From the sequence record NZ_CP084927.1: a DNA stretch of 27,292 nucleotides; one strand, written 5' to 3'. Numbering within the stretch: the stretch's first letter is position 1; each line of letters opens with the position of its first letter. Shown one piece after another: positions 4,169-25,945 of the stretch. The translations under genes were made by a program, and so were the position numbers. This DNA is from a plasmid. Under the pieces are notes generated by a model. The model did no database searches. It worked only from the letters and a program-made list of their open reading frames with translations, and was not told the origin of the DNA.

Positions 4169-4347
4169 TTTATCCCTCCTAACTTGGGAATTTGAAACGA
4201 GTTGAAAACGAGTTTCTTCTTGTCTTGAGTAGCATTTAAATTGCCAAAAGCTCTAGCTAATTCATTTGCTTGTGTAACTAAATAGGTTTGTCTATCTAAT
4301 AAGTTCTCTAATGCGTTTTTTGCTTTTTTATTTTCGACCATACTCAT
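4165..4347 (-). CDS. 60-aa hypothetical protein translationally coupled (ATGA overlap) to lnu(A).
   Basis: Good SD (tgaggtg, 6 nt from ATG). Its stop overlaps the lnu(A) start. No recognisable family. Confidence 0.45.
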   Translation of the reverse strand: MSMVENKKAKNALENLLDRQTYLVTQANELARAFGNLNATQDKKKLVFNSFQIPKLGGIK

Positions 4348-4365
4348 AAAAACACCTCAAATTTC

Positions 4366-4481
4366 AATACGTACTTTTTTATATAGTATATAATAACATA
4401 AAATATACCAATAACAATATTTATAAAAATAATATATAGTTAACGTACTTTTTTATATAGTTAACGTACTTTTTTATATTT
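4366..4481. repeat. Three copies of a 21-bp motif ttaacgtacttttttatatag, two of them in tandem, upstream of the 60-aa/lnu(A) operon.
   Basis: Direct inspection. An inverted copy lies at 7620-7645. Candidate operator or iteron. Confidence 0.5.
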
Positions 4482-4499
4482 TAAAGTGCATTAAACGTT

Positions 4500-4647
4500 G
4501 ATATAAAGGCATTTCTTTTCCTCTAATGTAATATAATGTATTACAATGTATTCTATAAATGTATCTTATTAAAGGCTGAATAAAATAAAAATTTCAAAAA
4601 AAGAAAAAAACACACTAAATAAATTCTTAAAATATTTTCTATTGTTT
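4500..4647 (-). pseudogene. Degenerate copy of the promoter and first ~20 codons of the Rep_trans gene (copy P3).
   Basis: The reverse complement of 4500-4560 aligns with atgtatacattctattacattaggga..., the 5' end of ORF 21075-22169. No downstream ORF. Confidence 0.5.
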
Positions 4648-4744
4648 AGCTAGACTAAAATTGCAGTTCTAGCAAATTGTGGTTCAGAAAGACACTGGGT
4701 CGCTCCGCTTATGCTATAACTCTAGTTAATCTACAACCATGCAA
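4648..4744 (+). repeat. Repeat B, copy 1 (~95 bp, contains an internal inverted repeat agttctagcaaa/tttgctagaact).
   Basis: Near-identical copies at 22266-22359 (direct) and 7363-7454 (inverted). Confidence 0.8.
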
Positions 4745-4762
4745 ATATAGACAAAACATGCT

Positions 4763-4838
4763 ATAATCATAGTGAAAAGATCAAAGTTACAAACAAAAAG
4801 CCCCCTAGATATTTGCGGTATCTAGGGGGTTATTTTGT
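4763..4838 (+). ncRNA. Candidate RNA II-like antitoxin sRNA of a par(pAD1)-type locus.
   Basis: Extended -10 tgctataat at 4754-4762. It runs into the bidirectional terminator at 4797-4838. It contains the direct repeat gatcaaagttacaaaca, whose second copy (4978-4994) overlaps the toxin start. Confidence 0.4.
4797..4838. terminator. Bidirectional intrinsic terminator shared by the convergent toxin mRNA and antitoxin RNA.
   Basis: Stem ccccctagata/tatctaggggg, with an A-run 5' and a T-run 3'. Confidence 0.6.
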
Positions 4839-4913
4839 TATTTCAGTCGCTGCCATTACTTAATCTAACAATAATGAGTCACAAACTGTTTTCAGGCTAA
4901 TTGTCTAACAAAG

Positions 4914-4997
4914 TTATCTATCTAGCCATTTGCAAATGTAATAGGCTATCACACCTGCTACGATAGATAAAAGAAAATTGATCAAAGTTGCAAACAT
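4914..4997 (-). CDS. Fst/Ldr-family type I toxin, 27 aa: MFATLINFLLSIVAGVIAYYICKWLDR.
   Basis: Single transmembrane segment followed by a WL(D/R) tail, typical of Fst-like toxins. SD aaggggg. Promoter with extended -10 tgctataat on the minus strand at 5063-5071. Confidence 0.55.
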   Translation of the reverse strand: MFATLINFLLSIVAGVIAYYICKWLDR

Positions 4998-5095
4998 TAA
5001 ATCGCCCCCTTTATTGTTGCAAGGACGATTTAGGCAGCAATTAACCGCCTTATTAGCTCAGACAACCTAAAAATTATAGCATAAGTGCTGACAAA

Positions 5096-5335
5096 TACAT
5101 TCTAAGCAAGCGTTCAAGTTGAATTTGGGTTATTATTCATGAAATCAACCGAGAAAACACCTTAGAAACCTTGATTTAATAGCTTTTTTAGCTGATTTAT
5201 GCTATAATTACTCCTGTAGTGATTAATGATCTACTTTGAAATCACTACATCATAACCACGTAAAAAAGATAGAGCCGATTATATTAATCGGCTCTATTTG
5301 CTATCTAAAATCAATTATAAGACATTTTAAATCAT
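5096..5335 (+). repeat. Repeat A, copy 1 (~240 bp). Contains a hairpin terminator (agagccgatta...taatcggctct) and an extended -10 promoter-like tgctataat.
   Basis: Inverted copy at 6700-6952. Partial direct copy at 22727-22830. A short piece (aaaccttgatttaataagctttttttt) lies next to the theta origin at 9398-9428. Confidence 0.75.
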
Positions 5336-6699
5336 TTCAAGTGTAATTATATTAAAAAGGGATAAAACGTCTAAAACACCCATTAAATTAGATTTAAACC
5401 ATATGTATTAATTTAATTAGTTAGCTATCACTTTAAATGCACTAATTTTATATAGCAGATAATACTTCTGCTGCCGAGACGGAAAAAATTATTTTTCTTT
5501 GGAATAACGAAGTAAAAAATTATGTGAACTGGATACAGTAATTTTTAAGAGCTTGAAAATAAGCTCTTTTTTATTTTTTGAAAAACGAAACAAAAGAAGC
5601 AAAACTACAAAATCATTTAGCTAAGTTGTAAAACGAAGCTCTGCATTCTGTACAACTAAGCTAAAGAGCATAAGTGAGAATGGTCATCCGTAGGCGGATG
5701 AGCCGACAGTGTCGGCATTCTCTCAATGACCAAATTTTCTCGCTTGTTACACAGCTATTTAACACTTGTTTTACAACTAATTTACACTTTGTTTTACGCT
5801 TATTTTACGTAAAACATTTGTTAAACATTTTTAAAATGCTATAAAAAATAGCCATCATATTTGTGACGACCAAATTTTTTTAATGTTTTTTGAGGAGCTT
5901 AGTTTTTTAAGCTCTTTTTTTATTTTTATAATATTTATATAGCAGAGAAAATTTTTCTTCCAGTTATTTTTCGTAAGAAAAAAGGAAACTGGAAGAAAAA
6001 TAATTGTAAGACGTTTGTCCCACAAAAAATAAATTTTAGTTTTTGAAAAGTGATACAAATGTGGCACGTGATATAAGTGTGCTACAAGTTGTGTTACAAC
6101 TGTGTTGTATTAGTTAGTATAGTGTGTTACACACGAGAAAATTAAGTCCCTAAGAAAACGCCGATACTATCGGCTCCCACGCACCTGTGGGACCATTTTC
6201 TCTTATGCTCTTTAACTCTGTACTCCAGTTTAGAAGATGCGAAAATTTTATTCTCAAAATTCGTTAAGTGGGTTTGAAGATTTTTTTCTTTGTTTAATTT
6301 TTTTGAAAAAGAAAAATTGAATTTAAGAAATTTTTTTGGCTCAAAATTAAATTTAAAAATCGAAAATCAAAAATAATATTAGTTCGGCAAAAATAAAAAC
6401 CTTAGAAGAAGAAAATAAATCATTACGTGATGAATTACAATTTTTCAAAAATTATGCTCAAAGATGGAATGTTAATGGGGAAAATGTAACTAAAATTATC
6501 TCTAAAGCTTATCTAAATAATAATAATAATGATTAAGAATAATTTATAGTATTTTAAAAAATATAAAATTAATATAAATAAAAAACCGTACAAAGGTACC
6601 TATGGCTTTTTTTATCTTTTTTCTGTATATAACTTTAAACCAAAATTAAGGGGGTTATTTGACGTTTTACAGCCTTTGAATAAATTACACTCAGAATGA

Positions 6700-6952
6700 T
6701 TTAAAATGCCTTAAAATTGATTTTAGATAGCAAATAGAGCCGATTAAATTAATCGACTCTATCTTTTTTTACGTGGTTATGATGTAGTAATTTCAGAGTA
6801 GATCATTAATTACTACAAGTTTAATTGTACCATAAATCAGCTAGAAAAGCTATTAAATCAGGGTTTCTAAGGCGTGATCTTTACTAATTTAATGAGTTAC
6901 TGCCTTATTTGGACTTGAAGTCATGCTTAGAATGCGTCTGACAGCACGAAAA
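6700..6952 (-). repeat. Repeat A, copy 2 (inverted).
   Basis: Aligns with the reverse complement of 5096-5335. It shares gtcagacgcattctaagca...caagt and gccttagaaaccYtgatttaatagctttt with copy 3. Confidence 0.75.
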
Positions 6953-7137
6953 AAGGCGGTATCCAAACCGCCCAAGCTAACACCGATGTTCAATAACTAG
7001 AGTGACTAATTCTAGTCTTCTGTGTTCAGCGCTATTTATACTCATTACACACTTATTATAACATTTTTTTTGTTATAATGCTATTTGTGTTCAGCAAGGT
7101 TTGACTAACCTTAGCGACACGAAAGGAGGAATCCTCC

Positions 7138-7281
7138 GTGAAGTTCGTTATTATACTCATTATCGTGCCTAACAAGCACGTAAAACGTTTTGCTAAGCTA
7201 GTAGCTCTCGCAGTTATTAGAACTGGTAAAATTGCAATTAAAAAGGCTATTGAACGCTTGGTTAGTTGGCTTAATGATTAA
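7138..7281 (+). CDS. 47-aa small cationic membrane peptide (VKFVIILIIVPNKHVKRFAKLVALAVIRTGKIAIKKAIERLVSWLND) with a GTG start. Candidate type I toxin.
   Basis: The SD ggagg lies inside a perfect hairpin ggaggaatcctcc. A paralog lies at 22443-22541 with a conserved N-terminus KIFVVIFLVPNKHVK. An intrinsic terminator follows at 7317-7352. Confidence 0.4.
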   Translation: MKFVIILIIVPNKHVKRFAKLVALAVIRTGKIAIKKAIERLVSWLND

Positions 7282-7362
7282 GTTCTGATAGTTGGTTACC
7301 AACGGAAGATAGTCATTTCAGCGGTTCTCTTTGAGAGTCGCTGTTTTTTTTGCTTTAAATAG

Positions 7363-7454
7363 CATGGTTGTAGATTATCTTGAGTTTTAGCATAAGCGGA
7401 GCGACCCAATGTCTTGCTGAACCACAATTTGCTAGAACTGCAAGTTTAGTCTAG
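7363..7454 (-). repeat. Repeat B, copy 2 (inverted).
   Basis: The reverse complement aligns with B1 and B3. Confidence 0.8.
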
Positions 7455-7620
7455 TTAAAAAATAGAGAAATTATTTTAGTAATTAAGTTGATGAGCTTTA
7501 TAAGTTTTTTTATTTTATTTTATTTTTTTATTTGCATGCGCCTTAAAAAGATACATTTATATGTATACATTCTATTACATTAGGGAGGAAAGAAATACCT
7601 TTATATCAACGTTTATAGCA
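7455..7620 (+). pseudogene. Second degenerate copy of the Rep_trans promoter and 5' end (copy P2). It reads MYTFYYIREERNTFISTFIAL then stops.
   Basis: 7561 atgtatacattctattacattagggagg... equals the first 11 codons of the 22169 ORF, then diverges to a stop. Confidence 0.55.
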
Positions 7621-7867
7621 CTTTAAAATATAAAAAAGTACGTTAACTATATATTGTTATCTATTATATACCTTTTTATATATTTTATGTTATTATAGAC
7701 TATATAAAAAACTACGTATTAAAATTTGAGGTGTTTTTATGGGAGTAATGAATAGTCAGTTCTATCTAGAAATATAACTGTTAGTTCAAATATTGATTTC
7801 ATAAAAATACCCCTATCTTTAATTTGATAGGAGTATTATCACATATTTTTAATGGCAAAGGTAGTTT

Positions 7868-9076
7868 TTAGTCACTAGTATCTTTATTAATCTTCTCAAG
7901 TAGTTCATCTATCTCTTTACTTCTTTGTATTCCTTTCTCTGTCAGGATATTTTTTTGAGCAGTATCATCCTTAGCCCAATCAGGTAATTTTTCTTTCTGT
8001 TTGAGCTTACTCTTATCTCTTTTGGCATATTTACCCTTATTCTTTTCAAAGTCGTCTAGAGCCTTTATTAGATACTTATCTAGTTCATTTGGCTTGGAGT
8101 TCATATGATCCTTAACGTACTTCAAATGTTTTTGTAGGTCATCTAATGAGTGTTTATTTACGAATACATCATACTTAGGATATACATTTTCCCCTAAGCT
8201 CATCATCAGCGATTCATTATTTGCATCTGCGAAATTTACTATCATTGCTCCAAGTAATAACGCTGTATATGGCGAATTTTGGACGTCTGATAGCGATAAT
8301 TTCTTCTCAGCTGTAAGTTCCCCTATTAGCTTTTCTGTTGAATTATTGGATATATGGAACTGAATCTTTGCTATCTTTCTGCCGACCCTAATAGTATCGT
8401 ATGTAATGTTAAATTCAGTATGCTCGTTAATTTCTTTTATTGCTGGTTCAATTACTCGCTTTTTTAAGTCTGAGAAACGATCATAGCTCTTTTTACCTTG
8501 TACTGTCAGTGCTTTTAACTCAGAAACGTCAATAACTGGATTTAAAAAACTCTCTAGCTCTTCTTTAGTTCTTTTCCCATTAGCTATATAGTTAGTATAT
8601 TGGTTATAGTACATCATCAATACCTTGTATATAGTGATTGTATTAGATGACGTAAAGTGCCTTAAATCTTCAATTCTGTACTGTGTAAAGTTCTTCTTCA
8701 ACTCCGTTATATACGGCATTATTTTATTAGAAAATGATAATTTAACCGTTGATTCATCTTCACTGAACTCAATTTTTGAAAATGGTGCAAAGATTTCTGT
8801 CTTTTTCTTTCCGTTCTCTTTAGTGTACTTTACTGTAAATGTACTTTTATCCATTAAGTTTGTCATAATTGTCTGTAGATAATCGTGTCGTAAAGCATTA
8901 GTTCTCGGCAAAAATGTCCTAATCAAGTCTTTTTCAAGCTCGACTTCTGGATCTTTTTCTTTTGTGTCTACATTAGCTACTGCCAGTTCAAACAGTTTTA
9001 AAGGTAGTGCATCCATTTTAGCAATAGCCTTAATTAAAGTATTACTTTGGACGACTTTTTTATTTTGTAAGTCCAT
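7868..9076 (-). CDS. repB: Theta-replication initiator, Rep_3 family (RepB-like, pCI305/pWV02-type).
   Basis: 402 aa with Rep_3-like architecture. Gene sits immediately downstream of the iteron array and A+T-rich region, the canonical lactococcal-type theta replicon arrangement. Confidence 0.85.
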   Translation of the reverse strand: MDLQNKKVVQSNTLIKAIAKMDALPLKLFELAVANVDTKEKDPEVELEKDLIRTFLPRTNALRHDYLQTIMTNLMDKSTFTVKYTKENGKKKTEIFAPFSKIEFSEDESTVKLSFSNKIMPYITELKKNFTQYRIEDLRHFTSSNTITIYKVLMMYYNQYTNYIANGKRTKEELESFLNPVIDVSELKALTVQGKKSYDRFSDLKKRVIEPAIKEINEHTEFNITYDTIRVGRKIAKIQFHISNNSTEKLIGELTAEKKLSLSDVQNSPYTALLLGAMIVNFADANNESLMMSLGENVYPKYDVFVNKHSLDDLQKHLKYVKDHMNSKPNELDKYLIKALDDFEKNKGKYAKRDKSKLKQKEKLPDWAKDDTAQKNILTEKGIQRSKEIDELLEKINKDTSD

Positions 9077-9162: not shown

Positions 9163-9391
9163 TTGTCTGTAGTTTGCAAAAGTTGTCTGTAGTTTATGTA
9201 TTATTGTTATATACGCTAATTTATCTTACATTCAATATAATACCACACAATACTACAGACATATATAACTAATTTGTCTGTAGTTTGCAAAAGTTGTCTG
9301 TAGTAACTGCAAAAGTTGTCTGTAGTAACTGCAAAAGTTGTCTGTAGTAACTGCAAAAGTTGTCTGTAGTAACTGCAAAAGTTGTCTGTAG
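9163..9391. repeat. Replication origin iterons. The 22-bp repeat ttgtctgtagtaactgcaaaag occurs ~5.5 times in tandem, plus two degenerate pairs further 3' (toward repB).
   Basis: Perfect tandem 22-mers at 9283-9391 and degenerate copies at 9163-9206 and 9264-9300. An A+T-rich stretch with (aaagata)n lies at 9430-9500. Confidence 0.85.
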
Positions 9392-9765
9392 TTCAGTCCT
9401 AAAAACCTTGATTTAATAAGCTTTTTTTTCGCCTAAAAGAAAAAGATAAAAAGATATAAAAGAAAAAGATAAAGAATAGACAAAAATACAGACAATATTT
9501 ACATACATAATGGCTAGTACTCAGATGCACTACTAGCCATTAAATATAGTTTCAGCTAGCTATTTCAAATAAACTCGTTATTAAATACAGTTTTAACTCG
9601 TTGTTTAATAAATCAATATATTGTAATATCAGTACTTTTAATAAATGCAGGTACAATATTTATTTAGACTTTTTATTTACTAGTTTCTTTAGAAAAAGGA
9701 CTATTATAATATTGGTTGACACGATATAATTTACTCGAAATATACTTTGAAAGCACGTGATTATT

Positions 9766-20329: not shown

Positions 20330-21082
20330 TTATGCCACCTGCAGCTTCTGTCCAACTCTCAAAGTCGTATCATACGTTAATCTGTTGATTTTAAGCAGTT
20401 CTTCAATGCTCAACCCATGCTGATATGCCACCAGCCACAGCGTATCGCCAGGTCGTACAACGTATGTATTACTCAAATCTAGCTGAATACCCTGATTACC
20501 TAAAATCTCAGTATAGTAGCCGAGAAAGTCATATGACATCTTAACTTCTAAACCATGCCAATCATTTGTAAAACGCCATGTTCCAACGCCGTCAATACCT
20601 GAATTACAAGCATAATATTTAATTGCCCATAGGTTGCCATAATCGCATTTATCAAAGTTAGTCAGCAGGTTTTCAGTTCTGAATTGTAACCCAGTTCTCT
20701 TATATCCGAACTCTTTTATTACACTTCGAAATGCTCTGATATTCTCTATCGTATCATCATCTACTCTCATACTAGATACATCTAACACTAGAGCAGTCTC
20801 ATCATTTAACTTAGTACTATGTAGATATTCGCCAAAGTGCCACGCTTCTTTTATAGCTTCATCTTTAGACCTGAAATCTGCCTTATGCTTAAAATGATAT
20901 AGCATATTAGCGTGCTGACAGGCGTGTTTTAACTCGAGTTCATGCAGGTTTACCCAGCTAACACCATGAGTAAGCTCAATAACGCAAGCTCTCACGCCTT
21001 TAGCTGCCAGAAATTCAATCTCTTTGGCAGTGAATCTATCTTCTTTCCCTATCTCTGCTAATAGGTTGTAACATCTAACCAT
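20330..21082 (-). CDS. GH25-family muramidase with a C-terminal LysM domain.
   Basis: GH25-like GVRACVIELTHGVSWVN, YHFKH and LVLDVS motifs. C-terminal LysM (YVVRPGDTLWLVAYQHGLSIEELLKINRL...GQKLQV). 8-nt overlap with the upstream gene. Confidence 0.75.
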   Translation of the reverse strand: MVRCYNLLAEIGKEDRFTAKEIEFLAAKGVRACVIELTHGVSWVNLHELELKHACQHANMLYHFKHKADFRSKDEAIKEAWHFGEYLHSTKLNDETALVLDVSSMRVDDDTIENIRAFRSVIKEFGYKRTGLQFRTENLLTNFDKCDYGNLWAIKYYACNSGIDGVGTWRFTNDWHGLEVKMSYDFLGYYTEILGNQGIQLDLSNTYVVRPGDTLWLVAYQHGLSIEELLKINRLTYDTTLRVGQKLQVA

Positions 21083-22136
21083 TCTCGTCCCCCTTACGTT
21101 TACTTTGTTTCTTTTCTCTCTCTTGTTGATATTGGAAAATGGCTTGCTGGTGTTTATTTTTCAAGCGTGTATTGCCATTTGAAATCAGCTTATACAGCCA
21201 GTTAATCTCTCCGTCTAATGCAGTTACAACAGTTGCTAAAGTAGGTCCTATCTGCTTATCAAGCCATGTAATCATTTCATCAACTGTTTTATCTTGCTTT
21301 TTAATCGTTAGTTTTAATGGCTCCACATTTTCGAGTAATCTTTCCCACCATTTCGCCGTTTTCCACCTAGATTTATTACTATCTTTAGAGTTTTTAGGAC
21401 GTTGTACAAAGCGTATATACTGTTGTAACGTCCTTCTAATCACTAGCCCTACATTGCTACACTCAATCATATGTAATGCCAGCATCTTAGCCCTTTCCTT
21501 GCGATAAACAATTTCCAACCTTGTCCATTTTTCCGGAATTTCCTTATCTTCATTTTTTGCCTTGCGTTTTTGCTCCAGTGCCTTATCGTAAATACGGCAG
21601 AAAATATCAGACGTTTGAGAACCAAAATACATTGTCTGTCCTAGTAATTTACCGTCCCCAGTACTTCTACTGTTTAGCTCGTCCCATTTGTTCCAGCGTG
21701 ACGTAAATTCAGACTTTAATGCAGCTCTCCTGATGCGACTAAATTTAATAAGATCGTCCTTAAAGTCATCAATGGCCAAGTCTATACGACTGAGTTTAGC
21801 TTGCTTTTCCAAAGCTACAAGCACATTAATCAATGTATACAGTGATTTCTGACTTTCATACGCTCTGCATCCAGTCCCTGACAATATCACATGTACACCC
21901 ATATGAGTAATGCAAGGCTCATCATCAACTTGGTTAAACAATACAAACAGGTTTCCATTACCCCACTTGGTCTGCGCATTGTAGCCAAATTTTCCTTTAC
22001 TTAGGTCTGCGAAATCTTCTATTTTTAGTTGTAAAATCTTTTCAATAACATCTTCATAACTCAACTGAAAAATCGTAAATTCTAGCCAGTCAATTGATGT
22101 CTGTAATGTCTGCTTAATCGTTGATGTAACAGGCAT
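21075..22136 (-). CDS. Rep_trans-family protein, either a rolling-circle replication initiator or a MOB_T-type relaxase, ~353 aa.
   Basis: Size, composition and TRLEIVYRKERA-type region are consistent with the Rep_trans superfamily. The start is set at the second ATG (MPVTSTIKQ), because the remnant copy at 7598-7606 preserves a GGGAGG SD in front of it. The ORF-track start is 22169. Confidence 0.6.
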   Translation of the reverse strand: MPVTSTIKQTLQTSIDWLEFTIFQLSYEDVIEKILQLKIEDFADLSKGKFGYNAQTKWGNGNLFVLFNQVDDEPCITHMGVHVILSGTGCRAYESQKSLYTLINVLVALEKQAKLSRIDLAIDDFKDDLIKFSRIRRAALKSEFTSRWNKWDELNSRSTGDGKLLGQTMYFGSQTSDIFCRIYDKALEQKRKAKNEDKEIPEKWTRLEIVYRKERAKMLALHMIECSNVGLVIRRTLQQYIRFVQRPKNSKDSNKSRWKTAKWWERLLENVEPLKLTIKKQDKTVDEMITWLDKQIGPTLATVVTALDGEINWLYKLISNGNTRLKNKHQQAIFQYQQEREKKQSKRKGDENG

Positions 22137-22265
22137 CTCTTTTTCCCTAATGTAATAGAATGTATACATATAAATGTATCTTTTTAAGGCGTGCGCAAAT
22201 AAAAAAATAAAAAAAACTTATAAAGCTCATCAACTTAATTACTAAAATAATTTCTCTATTTTTTA

Positions 22266-22359
22266 ACTAGATTAAAATTGCAGTTCTAGCAAATTGTGGT
22301 TCAGCAAGATATTGGGTCGCTACGCTTTTGCTAGAACTCTAGTTAATCTACAACCATGC
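22266..22359 (+). repeat. Repeat B, copy 3, upstream of the intact Rep_trans gene.
   Basis: Carries a perfect 12-bp IR agttctagcaaa/tttgctagaact separated by ~36 bp. Candidate dso/oriT or operator. Confidence 0.8.
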
Positions 22360-22370
22360 AATTTAAAGCA

Positions 22371-22405
22371 TAAAAAAAACAGCGACTCTCAAAAGAGAAC
22401 CGCTG
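22371..22405 (-). terminator. Intrinsic terminator for the minus-strand small-peptide gene.
   Basis: cagcggttctcttttgagagtcgctg followed by tttttttt (minus strand). The paralog at 7317-7352 is on the plus strand. Confidence 0.6.
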
Positions 22406-22442
22406 AAATAACCATCTCCTGCCGGTAACTAGCTTTCAGAAA

Positions 22443-22541
22443 TTAATCTTCTAACCAATTAAGCAGACATTTAATAGCCTTTTTAATTAACTTTTTAACG
22501 TGCTTATTAGGCACGAGGAAAATAACTACAAAGATTTTCAA
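22443..22541 (-). CDS. 32-aa small cationic membrane peptide (MKIFVVIFLVPNKHVKKLIKKAIKCLLNWLED) with a TTG start. Paralog of 7138-7281.
   Basis: SD aggagg inside the hairpin ggaggtatcctc. Conserved at protein level with the copy at 7138. Confidence 0.4.
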   Translation of the reverse strand: MKIFVVIFLVPNKHVKKLIKKAIKCLLNWLED

Positions 22542-22726
22542 AAGAGGATACCTCCTCTCTGTGCGTCTTAAGGTTACCAGCCTTAGCATTGCACATAAAT
22601 AATTCTAACATACCAGTTATTGTGTTATAATTAGTCTTAGGAAAATAATTACACATTGTACAAAGAGTCTAACCAACTCAGAAGTAGTACGACGTCGTTA
22701 ATTGGGAGCGGGATAAAAACCGCTCT

Positions 22727-22830
22727 TTTTTGTTTGTCAGACGCATTCTAAGCAAGCGTTCAAGTTGAATCTGGATAATAAACCATTAAAACCGTTGTAA
22801 ACACGCCTTAGAAACCTTGATTTAATAGCT
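22727..22830 (+). repeat. Repeat A, copy 3 (partial).
   Basis: gtcagacgcattctaagcaagcgttcaagttgaat...gccttagaaaccttgatttaatagctttt. Confidence 0.75.
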
Positions 22831-22916
22831 TTTATTTTATAAGAATGGTTTCTTTTGTTATAATACAAGCGGTTACAATATAACATTTAATAGTCGCTTT
22901 AGAAAGGAGTAAGAAA

Positions 22917-23741: not shown

Positions 23742-23917
23742 TTAAGTGACTATTTAAAAGGAGTTAATAAATATGCGGCAAGGTATTCTTAAATAAACTG
23801 TCAATTTGATAGCGGGAAAAAATAATTAGATGTCCTTTTTTAGGAGGGCTTAGTTTTTTGTACCCAGTTTAAGAATACCTTTATCATGTGATTCTAAAGT
23901 ATCCAGAGAATATCTGT

Positions 23918-24004
23918 ATGCTTTGTATACCTATGGTTATGCATAAAAATCCCAGTGATAAAAGTATTTATCACTGGGATTTTTATGCCCTTTTGGGTTT
24001 TTGA
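23918..24004 (+). CDS. tet(M) leader peptide (Tn916 orf12, MLCIPMVMHKNPSDKSIYHWDFYALLGF) with an embedded attenuator hairpin.
   Basis: 28 codons. Terminator-like aaaatcccagtgata...tatcactgggattttt at 23946-23990 lies inside the leader. This is the classic transcriptional attenuation arrangement. Confidence 0.75.
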   Translation: MLCIPMVMHKNPSDKSIYHWDFYALLGF

Positions 24005-24019
24005 ATGGAGGAAAATCAC

Positions 24020-25945
24020 ATGAAAATTATTAATATTGGAGTTTTAGCTCATGTTGATGCAGGAAAAACTACCTTAACAGAAAGCTTATTATATAACAGT
24101 GGAGCGATTACAGAATTAGGAAGCGTGGACAAAGGTACAACGAGGACGGATAATACGCTTTTAGAACGTCAGAGAGGAATTACAATTCAGACAGGAATAA
24201 CCTCTTTTCAGTGGGAAAATACGAAGGTGAACATCATAGACACGCCAGGACATATGGATTTCTTAGCAGAAGTATATCGTTCATTATCAGTTTTAGATGG
24301 GGCAATTCTACTGATTTCTGCAAAAGATGGCGTACAAGCACAAACTCGTATATTATTTCATGCACTTAGGAAAATGGGGATTCCCACAATCTTTTTTATC
24401 AATAAGATTGACCAAAATGGAATTGATTTATCAACGGTTTATCAGGATATTAAAGAGAAACTTTCTGCCGAAATTGTAATCAAACAGAAGGTAGAACTGT
24501 ATCCTAATATATGTGTGACGAACTTTACCGAATCTGAACAATGGGATACGGTAATAGAGGGAAACGATGACCTTTTAGAGAAATATATGTCCGGTAAATC
24601 ATTAGAAGCATTGGAACTCGAACAAGAGGAAAGCATAAGATTTCATAATTGTTCCCTGTTCCCTGTTTATCACGGAAGTGCAAAAAAAAATATAGGGATT
24701 GATAACCTTATAGAAGTGATTACGAATAAATTTTATTCATCAACACATCGAGGTCCGTCTGAACTTTGCGGAAATGTTTTCAAAATTGAATATACAAAAA
24801 AAAGACAACGTCTTGCATATATACGCCTTTATAGTGGAGTACTACATTTACGAGATTCGGTTAGAGTATCAGAATCAGAAAAAGAAAAAATAAAAGTTAC
24901 AGAAATGTATACTTCAATAAATGGTGAATTATGTAAGATTGATAGAGCTTATTCTGGAGAAATTGTTATTTTGCAAAATGAGTTTTTGAAGTTAAATAGT
25001 GTTCTTGGAGATACAAAACTATTGCCACAGAGAAAAAAGATTGAAAATCCGCACCCTCTACTACAAACAACTGTTGAACCGAGTAAACCTGAACAGAGAG
25101 AAATGTTGCTTGATGCCCTTTTGGAAATCTCAGATAGTGATCCGCTTCTACGATATTACGTGGATTCTACGACACATGAAATTATACTTTCTTTCTTAGG
25201 GAAAGTACAAATGGAAGTGACTTGTGCTCTATTGCAAGAAAAGTATCATGTGGAGGTAAAAATAAAAAAGCCTACAGTCATTTATATGGAAAGACCGTTA
25301 AAAAAAGCAGAGTATACCATTCACATCGAAGTGCCACCGAATCCCTTCTGGGCTTCCATTGGTCTTTCTGTAGCACCGCTTCCATTAGGGAGCGGAGTAC
25401 AGTATGAGAGCTCGGTTTCTCTTGGATACTTAAATCAATCGTTTCAAAATGCAGTTATGGAAGGGATACGATATGGCTGTGAACAAGGATTGTATGGTTG
25501 GAATGTGACGGACTGTAAAATCTGTTTTAAGTATGGCTTATACTATAGCCCTGTTAGTACCCCAGCAGATTTTCGGATGCTTGCTCCTATTGTATTGGAA
25601 CAAGTCTTAAAAAAAGCTGGAACAGAATTGTTAGAGCCATATCTTAGTTTTAAAATTTATGCGCCACAGGAATATCTTTCACGAGCATACAACGATGCTC
25701 CTAAATATTGTGCGAACATCGTAGACACTCAATTGAAAAATAATGAGGTCATTCTTAGTGGAGAAATCCCTGCTCGGTGTATTCAAGAATATCGTAGTGA
25801 TTTAACTTTCTTTACAAATGGACGTAGTGTTTGTTTAACAGAGTTAAAAGGGTACCATGTTACTACCGGTGAACCTGTTTGCCAGCCCCGTCGTCCAAAT
25901 AGTCGGATAGATAAAGTACGATATATGTTCAATAAAATAACTTAG
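24020..25945 (+). CDS. tet(M): Ribosomal protection protein Tet(M).
   Basis: 641 aa from [24 protein letters not shown]..., an EF-G-like GTPase matching Tet(M) along its length. SD ggagg. The ORF-track start 24005 overlaps the leader stop and is rejected. Confidence 0.95.

Follow-up and report, generated by a model that had tools for sequence, protein, structure and literature searches.

A divergent peptide-small RNA cassette on Ligilactobacillus salivarius plasmids as a probable type I toxin-antitoxin-like maintenance module

Here, we describe a cassette of about 400 bases, module A, located at positions 6949-7352 of a 27,292-nt stretch of plasmid sequence from the record NZ_CP084927.1 (this whole stretch is referred to below as the window). 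The cassette consists of two divergent extended -10 promoters placed between two outward-facing intrinsic terminators, and it contains a gene for a small peptide on one strand and a predicted non-coding small RNA (sRNA) on the other. We consider it probable that the cassette is a type I toxin-antitoxin (TA)-like module for plasmid maintenance and belongs to a family not described so far, in which the antitoxin gene is divergent from the toxin gene and does not overlap with it. The computed evidence comprises the gene pair itself, selection on the peptide, a bipartite complementarity between the two RNAs that covaries among relatives, the mobility of the cassette as a modular unit, its maintenance neighbourhoods, and its positional equivalence to a par-like module. 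The segment at window positions 6800-7500 (701 bases queried) shares 99.9% identity with plasmids of Ligilactobacillus salivarius, for example pCTN1046 (NZ_CP007650), and the window is a L. salivarius pCTN1046-like plasmid.

The promoters of module A were read from the sequence. A near-palindromic, AT-rich segment, attataacattttttttgttataat, contains the extended -10 element TGTTATAAT on both strands, at positions 7071-7079 on the plus strand for the peptide mRNA and at positions 7055-7063 on the minus strand for the sRNA. The predicted mRNA of about 267 nt covers positions 7086-7352 (+), with its start deduced from the -10 element, and has a folding energy of -75.8 kcal/mol (z -2.65). It contains the coding sequence for the peptide, MKFVIILIIVPNKHVKRFAKLVALAVIRTGKIAIKKAIERLVSWLND, which starts with GTG at positions 7138-7281 (+), has a net charge of +8, and is labelled in RefSeq only as a hypothetical protein. 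The mRNA ends with an intrinsic terminator at 7319-7352 (+), composed of an 11-bp stem (7319-7343) and T8. The predicted antitoxin-like sRNA of about 100 nt is located at 6949-7048 on the minus strand, from about 7 nt past the extended -10 element to the U-run of its terminator, and has a folding energy of -29.6 kcal/mol (z -2.78). A terminator scan identified this second terminator, GGGCGGUUUGGAUACCGCCU followed by U6, at 6949-6973 (-), with the stem at 6954-6973 and the U-run extending to 6949. An initial annotation of the locus had described the GTG-initiated open reading frame (ORF) of 47 amino acids, the strong terminator that follows it, and the back-to-back extended -10 elements, all of which are present; the minus-strand terminator, which it had placed at roughly 6985-6950, is also present, at the corrected coordinates given above.

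The same annotation had proposed that a 10-nt direct repeat makes the two transcripts complementary to each other, a proposal borne out by the pairing analysis. The window contains exactly two copies of the repeat, TGTGTTCAGC (7021-7030 and 7086-7095), as compared to a mean of 0.01 in shuffled sequences, none of which (0/100) contained two or more copies. The downstream copy represents the predicted 5' end of the mRNA (site 1, UGUGUUCAGC, 7086-7095, +), and the upstream copy, read on the minus strand, is the corresponding segment of the sRNA (site 1', GCUGAACACA, 7021-7030, -). The duplex between the two has an energy of -14.9 kcal/mol. The first five to six nucleotides of site 1 in the mRNA also form a stem, P1, with positions 7114-7119. 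A second hairpin in the leader, P2 (AAGGU-UUGACUA-ACCUU, 7096-7112, +), contains site 2, UGACUAA, in its loop (7102-7108), and the automated helix search matched it to the hairpin loop UUAGUCA of the sRNA (site 2', 7003-7009, -, corresponding to sRNA positions +40 to +46). A third hairpin, GGAGG-AAU-CCUCC, at 7125-7137 (+), contains the Shine-Dalgarno (SD) sequence and is located directly 5' of the GTG codon, with an energy of -7.1 kcal/mol.

Relatives were sought by tblastn, by word-indexed and exhaustive protein searches, and by pattern scans of genome and metagenome collections. The peptide ORF is conserved on related plasmids, and 13 distinct, diverged versions of the cassette could be assembled, all of which share the layout of module A, with an extended -10 element and a terminator for each of the two transcripts, an SD hairpin, and the ORF. 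The hosts of the family include small plasmids and megaplasmids of L. salivarius (including the linear pLMP1046), plasmids of L. murinus and Limosilactobacillus reuteri, and gut metagenome contigs. An exhaustive profile search against 1.84 billion representatives recovered eight clusters, seven of which belong to the module A/B peptide family, and the eighth, a repetitive protein of 1557 amino acids, was read as spurious.

The complementarity between the two RNAs was scored in all versions by automatically locating the longest contiguous helix that nucleotides 1-45 of the predicted mRNA can form with nucleotides 1-62 of the sRNA. In 12 of the 13 versions, the helix at site 1 starts at mRNA position +1 (or +2) and sRNA position +16 to +19, and the site spans positions +1 to +12 of the mRNA and +16 to +28 of the sRNA. 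The helix is 8-12 bp long in 12 versions and 6 bp in the version called L002. Site 2, which pairs mRNA positions +15 to +18 (+10 in the reuteri type) with sRNA positions +33 to +40, forms helices of 6-9 bp in 10 of the 13 versions and is in the same number of versions among the three best helices at constant positions. Site 2 falls in a hairpin loop on both RNAs, and the stems show compensatory changes, which in the sRNA hairpin that carries site 2' affect all four pairs; the covariation of the stems in the leader and the sRNA was judged on alignments of seven sequences together with folds of the individual sequences.

Both sites vary in sequence between the versions and stay complementary within each of them. 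At site 1, the mRNA sequence is UGUGUUCAGC in module A, UGUGCAAUG in module B, GUGCACUUAAC in L003, GUGCAUUUCUA in L015, GCGUGUCGG in L014, and GCACACCGA in L018, and the sequences at site 2 include UGACUAA, UGAUAAA, UAAUCA, UUACCA, UGCUUAA, and GAGUAACGA. The mean score at site 1 was 8.9 for cognate pairs and 4.9 for non-cognate pairs, and none of 200,000 random assignments of sRNAs to mRNAs reached the observed total. The corresponding means at site 2 were 6.5 and 5.2, with 28 of 200,000 random assignments reaching the observed total. With the first seven versions only, the fractions were 1/5040 assignments for site 1 and 4/5040 for site 2. Where the two DNA copies of the repeat differ inside the site 1 helix, the mismatches correspond to ten G·U pairs and one A·C pair. 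Selection on RNA pairing predicts such an asymmetry while DNA repeats alone do not. The two sites are located in the same 5' to 3' order on both RNAs, so that the complex of mRNA and sRNA must be bipartite rather than one continuous duplex.

The elements that surround the pairing sites are conserved at fixed positions. TGnTAnAnT elements are present on both strands in 13 of 13 versions, and among the first seven versions the -10 element of the mRNA precedes the start codon by 59-63 nt. A GC-rich hairpin followed by a U-run is found 90-102 nt past the leftward promoter, again in all 13 versions, with differing hairpin sequences, and there is no ORF in the sRNA that is conserved among the variants. 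The leader, which is about 52 nt long in module A, folds into the three parts P1, P2, and SD hairpin in single-sequence folds of 11 of the 13 versions. Stem P1 overlaps with site 1 and shows C-G/U-A covariation. The SD hairpin has an energy of -7 to -11 kcal/mol in all variants, differs in sequence by class, and either ends 0-5 nt before the start codon or overlaps with it. Alignments of 12-13 leaders or sRNAs with MAFFT and RNAalifold gave no consensus structure, and the variable-length hairpins were misaligned. A refolding switch was also considered, in which P1 would open when the sRNA binds at site 1 and its CAC(G) strand would then pair with the start codon; it was rejected after constrained folding of seven variants gave opposite effects in different variants.

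The peptide ORF is a real gene under purifying selection, as the initial annotation had argued for the protein. Pairwise dN/dS ratios range from 0.10 to 0.57, the second codon positions change least, and all indels are in frame, with lengths of 4, 8 or 15 codons. The peptides of the family are 32, 39-40, 43-44, or 47 amino acids long and start with GTG, TTG, or ATG. Four residues, Pro11, Val15, Lys35, and Lys36, do not vary at all, and the motif P-N-K/G-x-V-K ... I-K-K-A is almost unchanged throughout. The ten N-terminal residues are very hydrophobic (mean Eisenberg hydrophobicity of 0.84-0.92), and the remainder is an amphipathic, cationic stretch (net charge of +5 to +8) whose hydrophobic moment reaches 0.68. 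In a single-sequence AlphaFold2 model of the 47-amino acid peptide, residues 1-12 form a coil and residues 13-29 and 32-46 form helices. The gene thus encodes a peptide of less than 60 amino acids, and the adjacent predicted sRNA is complementary to its mRNA, which is the combination expected of a type I TA system.

The window contains a diverged paralogue of the cassette, module B, which has the same form on the other strand (22371-22731). The predicted sRNA B of about 94 nt (22638-22731, +) is preceded by the extended -10 element TGTTATAAT (22623-22631, +), contains site 1' CAUUGUACA (22654-22662, +), and ends with a terminator at 22704-22731 (stem 22704-22727). The predicted mRNA B (22371-22595, -) is preceded by the extended -10 element TGTTAGAAT (22602-22610, -), and its leader contains site 1 UGUGCAAUG (22587-22595), P2 (22569-22585), and the SD hairpin (22540-22560), all on the minus strand. 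Peptide B, MKIFVVIFLVPNKHVKKLIKKAIKCLLNWLED (22443-22541, -), has a TTG start, 32 amino acids, and a net charge of +5, and its dN/dS ratio to its closest relative, L004, is 0.15. All parts of this paralogue that had been annotated initially are present, with the terminator stem narrowed from 22371-22405 to 22380-22405. The cognate scores at sites 1 and 2 are 10 and 7 for module A and 8.5 and 4.5 for module B, as compared to 4.5/5.5 and 5/4.5 for the two cross-pairs, and from these scores modules A and B are predicted to be orthogonal, without cross-reaction. A heuristic scan for a promoter followed by a terminator after 85-105 nt identified only two sRNA units of the family in the window. Types A and B also occur together on several PLSDB plasmids, as they do in the window, and the metagenome contig ERZ506583 NODE-63 (28,964 bp) contains three modules (L022, L027, and L034) of three specificity classes, types A, L002, and B.

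In unrelated contexts, the homology starts at the sRNA terminator and stops at the mRNA terminator. As the limits of homology coincide with its two terminators, the cassette forms a self-contained unit of roughly 400 bp. Three genomic settings were seen: 5' of rep genes, on megaplasmids where no rep gene is annotated next to it, and after a parM/StbA partition operon. The latter setting is found in the Limosilactobacillus reuteri plasmids (L016-L019), in which the ParM/StbA partition gene and then a small gene of hypothetical product directly precede the cassette. The adjacency to the partition gene places the L. reuteri cassette in a plasmid maintenance region.

The same heuristic scan identified two to three tandem sRNA genes of the family beside a single peptide gene in Limosilactobacillus loci, at approximately 1006-1500 in L013, 1370-1620 in L016, 1458-1580 in L017, and 1490-1730 in L018. 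Each of these genes has its own extended -10 element and terminator, and the site 1 and loop sequences differ among the units. Some of the tandem sRNAs match the local mRNA less well than mRNAs from elsewhere in the family, and the tandem sRNAs may be orphan antitoxins. Taken together, the tandem arrays and the contig with three modules suggest diversification into orthogonal classes, possibly including orphan antitoxins.

Within the window, modules A and B occupy the central slot of a scaffold of about 1 kb, which according to a repeat analysis is present in three copies, at 6683-7741 (+, copy A), approximately 22115-22840 (-, copy B), and 4345-5348 (-, copy C). The flanks are 80-95% identical among the three copies, and the central slot differs. 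In copy C, this slot contains a par/Fst-like cassette (4790-5085, -) with a classical par/Fst architecture, in which convergent extended -10 promoters share one bidirectional terminator (approximately 4797-4833). The direct repeat of this cassette, aactttgatc, is located at approximately 4781-4792 and 4981-4992 and covers the start region. It encodes a hydrophobic peptide of 27 amino acids, MFATLINFLLSIVAGVIAYYICKWLDR (4914-4997, -), which has a weak, sub-threshold match to a type I toxin in NCBIfam. The copy C cassette has no match in Rfam and is without annotation in the records of related plasmids. Weak tblastn relatives are found on many small Streptococcus and Enterococcus plasmids.

The copies of the scaffold also share a 177-nt element, at 7344-7520, 22201-22377, and 4635-4756, which is 88-93% identical between copies. 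It separates the rep gene from the TA slot and could be an origin or a control RNA. Copy B contains a Rep_trans gene (21075-22169), with module B located upstream of it, and copies A and C hold truncated rep remnants. The scaffold copies resemble vestiges of small replicons, with a maintenance cassette kept in each. An inverted repeat of 106 nt (5648-5753 and 6123-6228, 72% complementary) flanks a low-complexity, AT-rich region between copies C and A, in which there is a doubtful ORF of 70 amino acids (5855-6067).

Searches of curated collections gave no indication of a known family. The module A/B peptide family has no sequence match in Pfam, NCBIfam, PADLOC, or PDB, and the peptides of modules A and B and of L003 from L. 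murinus have no match to a toxin in Pfam or NCBIfam at E <= 10. The cassette matches no Rfam family, either at gathering or at permissive thresholds, the best sub-threshold matches being to unrelated families. No account of this peptide-sRNA family was found in a full-text literature search, and in the pCTN1046 paper the complete TA systems reported for that strain are confined to pMP1046A and pLMP1046, with none on pCTN1046. The suggestion in the initial annotation that this type I TA-like family had gone unrecognised and differs from Fst is supported by these results, by the covariation of the repeat at a fixed position across the 13 versions, by the purifying selection on the peptide, and by a profile search that finds only a small family of related sequences. 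The loop-loop contact at site 2, the par/Fst-like cassette in the third scaffold copy, and the spread to L. murinus and Limosilactobacillus reuteri extend beyond that annotation.

By analogy, the cassette appears to function most like the par/Fst systems, such as par of Enterococcus faecalis pAD1 (Fst, RNA I and RNA II) and Lpt of Lacticaseibacillus rhamnosus, which are also plasmid-borne in Lactobacillales. In both cases, the peptide mRNA has a structured leader that would limit translation, and the complementarity is obtained from short direct DNA repeats that are transcribed in opposite directions and make contacts at several sites, rather than from overlap between the genes. The two also share the scaffold slot, as shown by the par-like cassette in copy C. 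The two repeats of the module are placed in permuted order, so that they have the same 5' to 3' order in both RNAs, and one of them is located in loops. However, the genes of the module are divergent with two terminators, while those of par converge on a shared bidirectional terminator. Furthermore, the module peptide shows no similarity to Fst/Ldr or Lpt and lacks a full-length hydrophobic helix, and the pairing sites of the module are located upstream of the SD sequence, while those of par cover the initiation region.

In gene layout, the module instead resembles a group of enterobacterial systems. According to the T1TAdb paper, the families with a 5', non-overlapping antitoxin are Gram-negative and chromosomal, namely tisB/istR-1, shoB/ohsC, zorO/orzO, and dinQ/agrB (PMC8594479), and in all Gram-positive families listed the antitoxin is located on the 3' side and overlaps with the mRNA (PMC8594479; likewise PMC4147584). 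The module shares with the enterobacterial group a divergent, non-overlapping antitoxin gene 5' of the toxin gene and pairing in the 5' untranslated region (UTR), and both pair through a short segment of this region (approximately 10-20 nt) away from a structured SD sequence (PMC4147584; PMC8594479). Since the SD sequence is structured and the pairing takes place away from it, as in this group, a mechanism that acts through a standby site or through RNase III is plausible. The enterobacterial group has long 5' UTRs that need processing, while pairing in the approximately 52-nt leader of module A begins at the predicted +1 position. The second, loop-loop site of the module A family is not part of the descriptions of this group (PMC8594479; PMC4147584). 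The toxins are unrelated, and the module has no match in Pfam or NCBIfam, nor any match above threshold in Rfam, that would connect it to the group.

The apparent mode of recognition is reminiscent of a third set of systems. CopA/CopT of plasmid R1 and hok/sok combine a loop-loop contact with a second helix that involves a single-stranded 5' segment, and short stretches of nucleotides set their specificity and define orthogonal classes. They are true cis-antisense systems, with full complementarity over tens of nucleotides. The genes of the module are non-overlapping and their complementarity consists of two short islands.

From these features we infer that both RNAs are transcribed, that the sRNA represses the mRNA, and that the peptide is toxic and mediates post-segregational killing. 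The divergent promoters would give a rightward peptide mRNA of about 267 nt and a leftward non-coding RNA of about 100 nt. The leader of the mRNA, with P1, P2, and an SD hairpin that ends at a weak start codon, would make translation poor from the outset. As the transcripts do not overlap, the sRNA would act in trans, through the two short sites that are created by direct DNA repeats. Site 1 would form a helix at the extreme 5' end of the mRNA and site 2 a loop-loop kissing contact, and the sequences of the two sites would decide which sRNA recognises which mRNA. Binding of the sRNA may hold the mRNA silent, either by occupying its 5' end and standby region or by forming a substrate for RNase III, two modes of silencing suggested by analogy with other systems (PMC4147584). 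Upon loss of the plasmid, the sRNA would decay first, and the peptide would then be made and harm the cell.

Several results weigh against the interpretation of the cassette as a type I TA-like module. The 13 versions are phylogenetically related, and the counts of G·U pairs and covarying positions are therefore higher than the number of changes that arose independently. Pairing at site 2 is weak in L013, L018, and copy B (4 bp), and L002 has a weak site 1. When whole cognate RNA pairs were compared to non-cognate pairs and to dinucleotide shuffles with RNAduplex, the duplex was better than the shuffles in copy A (z -2.05) and L010 and not in copy B (z +0.26), L002, L003, L004, and L011; because only A and L010 stood out, whole-transcript energies were replaced by the position-restricted scoring of contiguous helices described above. 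The promoters have no recognisable -35 element. The pairing sites are located 30-50 nt upstream of the SD sequence, and blocking site 1 in the refolding test had no consistent effect. The accessibility of the SD sequence and the start codon was for most variants not below that of controls with shuffled flanks. The hairpin itself is present as initially annotated and is conserved, but its description as a lock on the SD sequence was an overstatement. Likewise, the hydrophobic N-terminus and the cationic, amphipathic remainder of the peptide agree with the description of its style as that usual for type I toxins, but the hydrophobic run comprises only 8-9 consecutive residues and is too short for the single transmembrane helix typical of such toxins. 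The structure model of the peptide is of modest confidence, with a predicted local distance difference test (pLDDT) score of 68.

The short hydrophobic run also bears on the best of the alternative explanations, according to which the cassette is not an addiction module and the product under sRNA control is a small protein other than a toxin, for instance a regulator associated with the membrane, an effector of phage defence, or a factor in competition between plasmids. Such a protein would be compatible with a hydrophobic segment that is unusually short for a membrane toxin and with the absence of a match between the peptide and any toxin family, and the evidence from pairing and coding is silent on toxicity. 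However, the weak start codons, the SD hairpin, the dedicated antisense RNA, and the strict linkage to plasmids are hallmarks of the control of toxic peptides. Furthermore, a par/Fst-like module is located in the same slot of scaffold copy C, and there are up to three predicted orthogonal paralogues per plasmid, as is the case for addiction modules. We regard a non-toxin function as possible but rather unlikely.

The initial annotation had mentioned an antimicrobial peptide as a second option, and this now appears less likely. The peptide would then be a leaderless, cationic bacteriocin or antimicrobial peptide that is exported and kills competitors, with the sRNA only tuning its production. 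The length of 32-47 amino acids, the net charge of +5 to +8, the amphipathic helices with a moment of up to 0.68, and the Trp residue that is mostly found near the C-terminus would all fit such a peptide, and the hosts are known as bacteriocin producers. In L. murinus pLmYK1, a gene of the bactofencin A family (L003 2965-3114) is located just 3' of the rep gene that follows the module. On the other hand, no annotated gene for immunity, an ABC transporter, or processing adjoins the cassette or recurs with it in the contexts inspected, in contrast to the linked immunity or export genes of leaderless bacteriocins, and the conserved unit stops at its two terminators. The GTG and TTG start codons and the SD hairpin point to minimal expression rather than expression at the level of secretion, and there is no match to a bacteriocin family in Pfam or NCBIfam. 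A bacteriocin function is unlikely.

It is very improbable that the direct repeats are DNA-level elements at the divergent promoters, either operators or products of gene conversion, and that the leftward sRNA is incidental. The repeats do flank the promoter pair, a DNA-binding partner common to both copies might in principle account for their covariation, and the RNAduplex energies are mostly non-significant. However, the differences between the copies favour G·U over A·C by ten to one, and on both transcripts site 2 is presented by the loop of a hairpin that covaries. A separate promoter and terminator are conserved for the leftward unit in 13 of 13 versions, and no DNA-binding protein is encoded by the cassette. 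The idea that the cassette is a replication-control region, with the sRNA as a countertranscript and the peptide as a leader ORF that both regulate a downstream rep gene, draws on the replication initiator gene that follows copy B, L002, L003, and relatives in the same orientation. It is scarcely credible given the strong terminator (11-bp stem and T8) and about 200 nt between the peptide and rep, the lack of overlap between sRNA and mRNA, as opposed to the antisense overlap with a rep leader and the continuation into rep that characterize replication countertranscripts, the absence of an annotated adjacent rep gene in the megaplasmids, after parM, and downstream of copy A, the purifying selection on the peptide across contexts, and the par/Fst-like module in the same slot of copy C.

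The remainder of the window contains features of known types. A theta-type RepB/Rep_3 gene (7868-9076, -) is associated with 22-bp iterons; direct repeats of this length, TGCAAAAGTTGTCTGTAGTAAC, adjoin the start of the gene at 9175-9395, with 4.5 tandem units at 9286-9395, and presumably represent the iterons of the theta origin. Other genes include a Mob_Pre relaxase and an aminoglycoside nucleotidyltransferase. A Tn916-type tet(M) leader RNA, a known element, is located at 23800-23964 (Rfam sRNA_0030, 194 bits) and is followed by tet(M) at 24005-25945.

If the cassette is a TA-like module, a broader interpretation can be put forward tentatively, in which a two-site RNA recognition code, arrays of orphan sRNAs that provide anti-addiction immunity, and a toxin without the classical mechanism based on a single transmembrane helix are combined in one family. 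The code would consist of a helix at the 5' end and a kissing loop, would be programmable, and would define about ten mutually orthogonal specificity classes. Orthogonality would allow several paralogous addiction modules to share one plasmid, as for the two modules in the window and the three on the metagenome contig. The arrays of two to three sRNAs of foreign specificity in Limosilactobacillus would neutralise the toxins of competing plasmids, and the combination of 8-9 hydrophobic residues and a cationic, amphipathic helix would imply another mechanism of toxicity.

If the peptide is toxic, the cassette represents a new toxin family and a new family of antitoxin RNAs on plasmids of gut and probiotic lactobacilli. 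Resistance genes, tet(M) among them, are present on some of these plasmids. The cassette is mostly unannotated or labelled as hypothetical in sequence records, and surveys of Lactobacillaceae plasmids have therefore probably overlooked stability determinants. The roughly ten covarying specificity classes provide a natural system for learning how short, bipartite RNA-RNA contacts set specificity and avoid cross-talk, and they could reveal whether orphan antitoxin sRNAs mediate competition between plasmids. The cassette could also be used to stabilise vectors in lactobacilli, and it may help explain the persistence of resistance plasmids.

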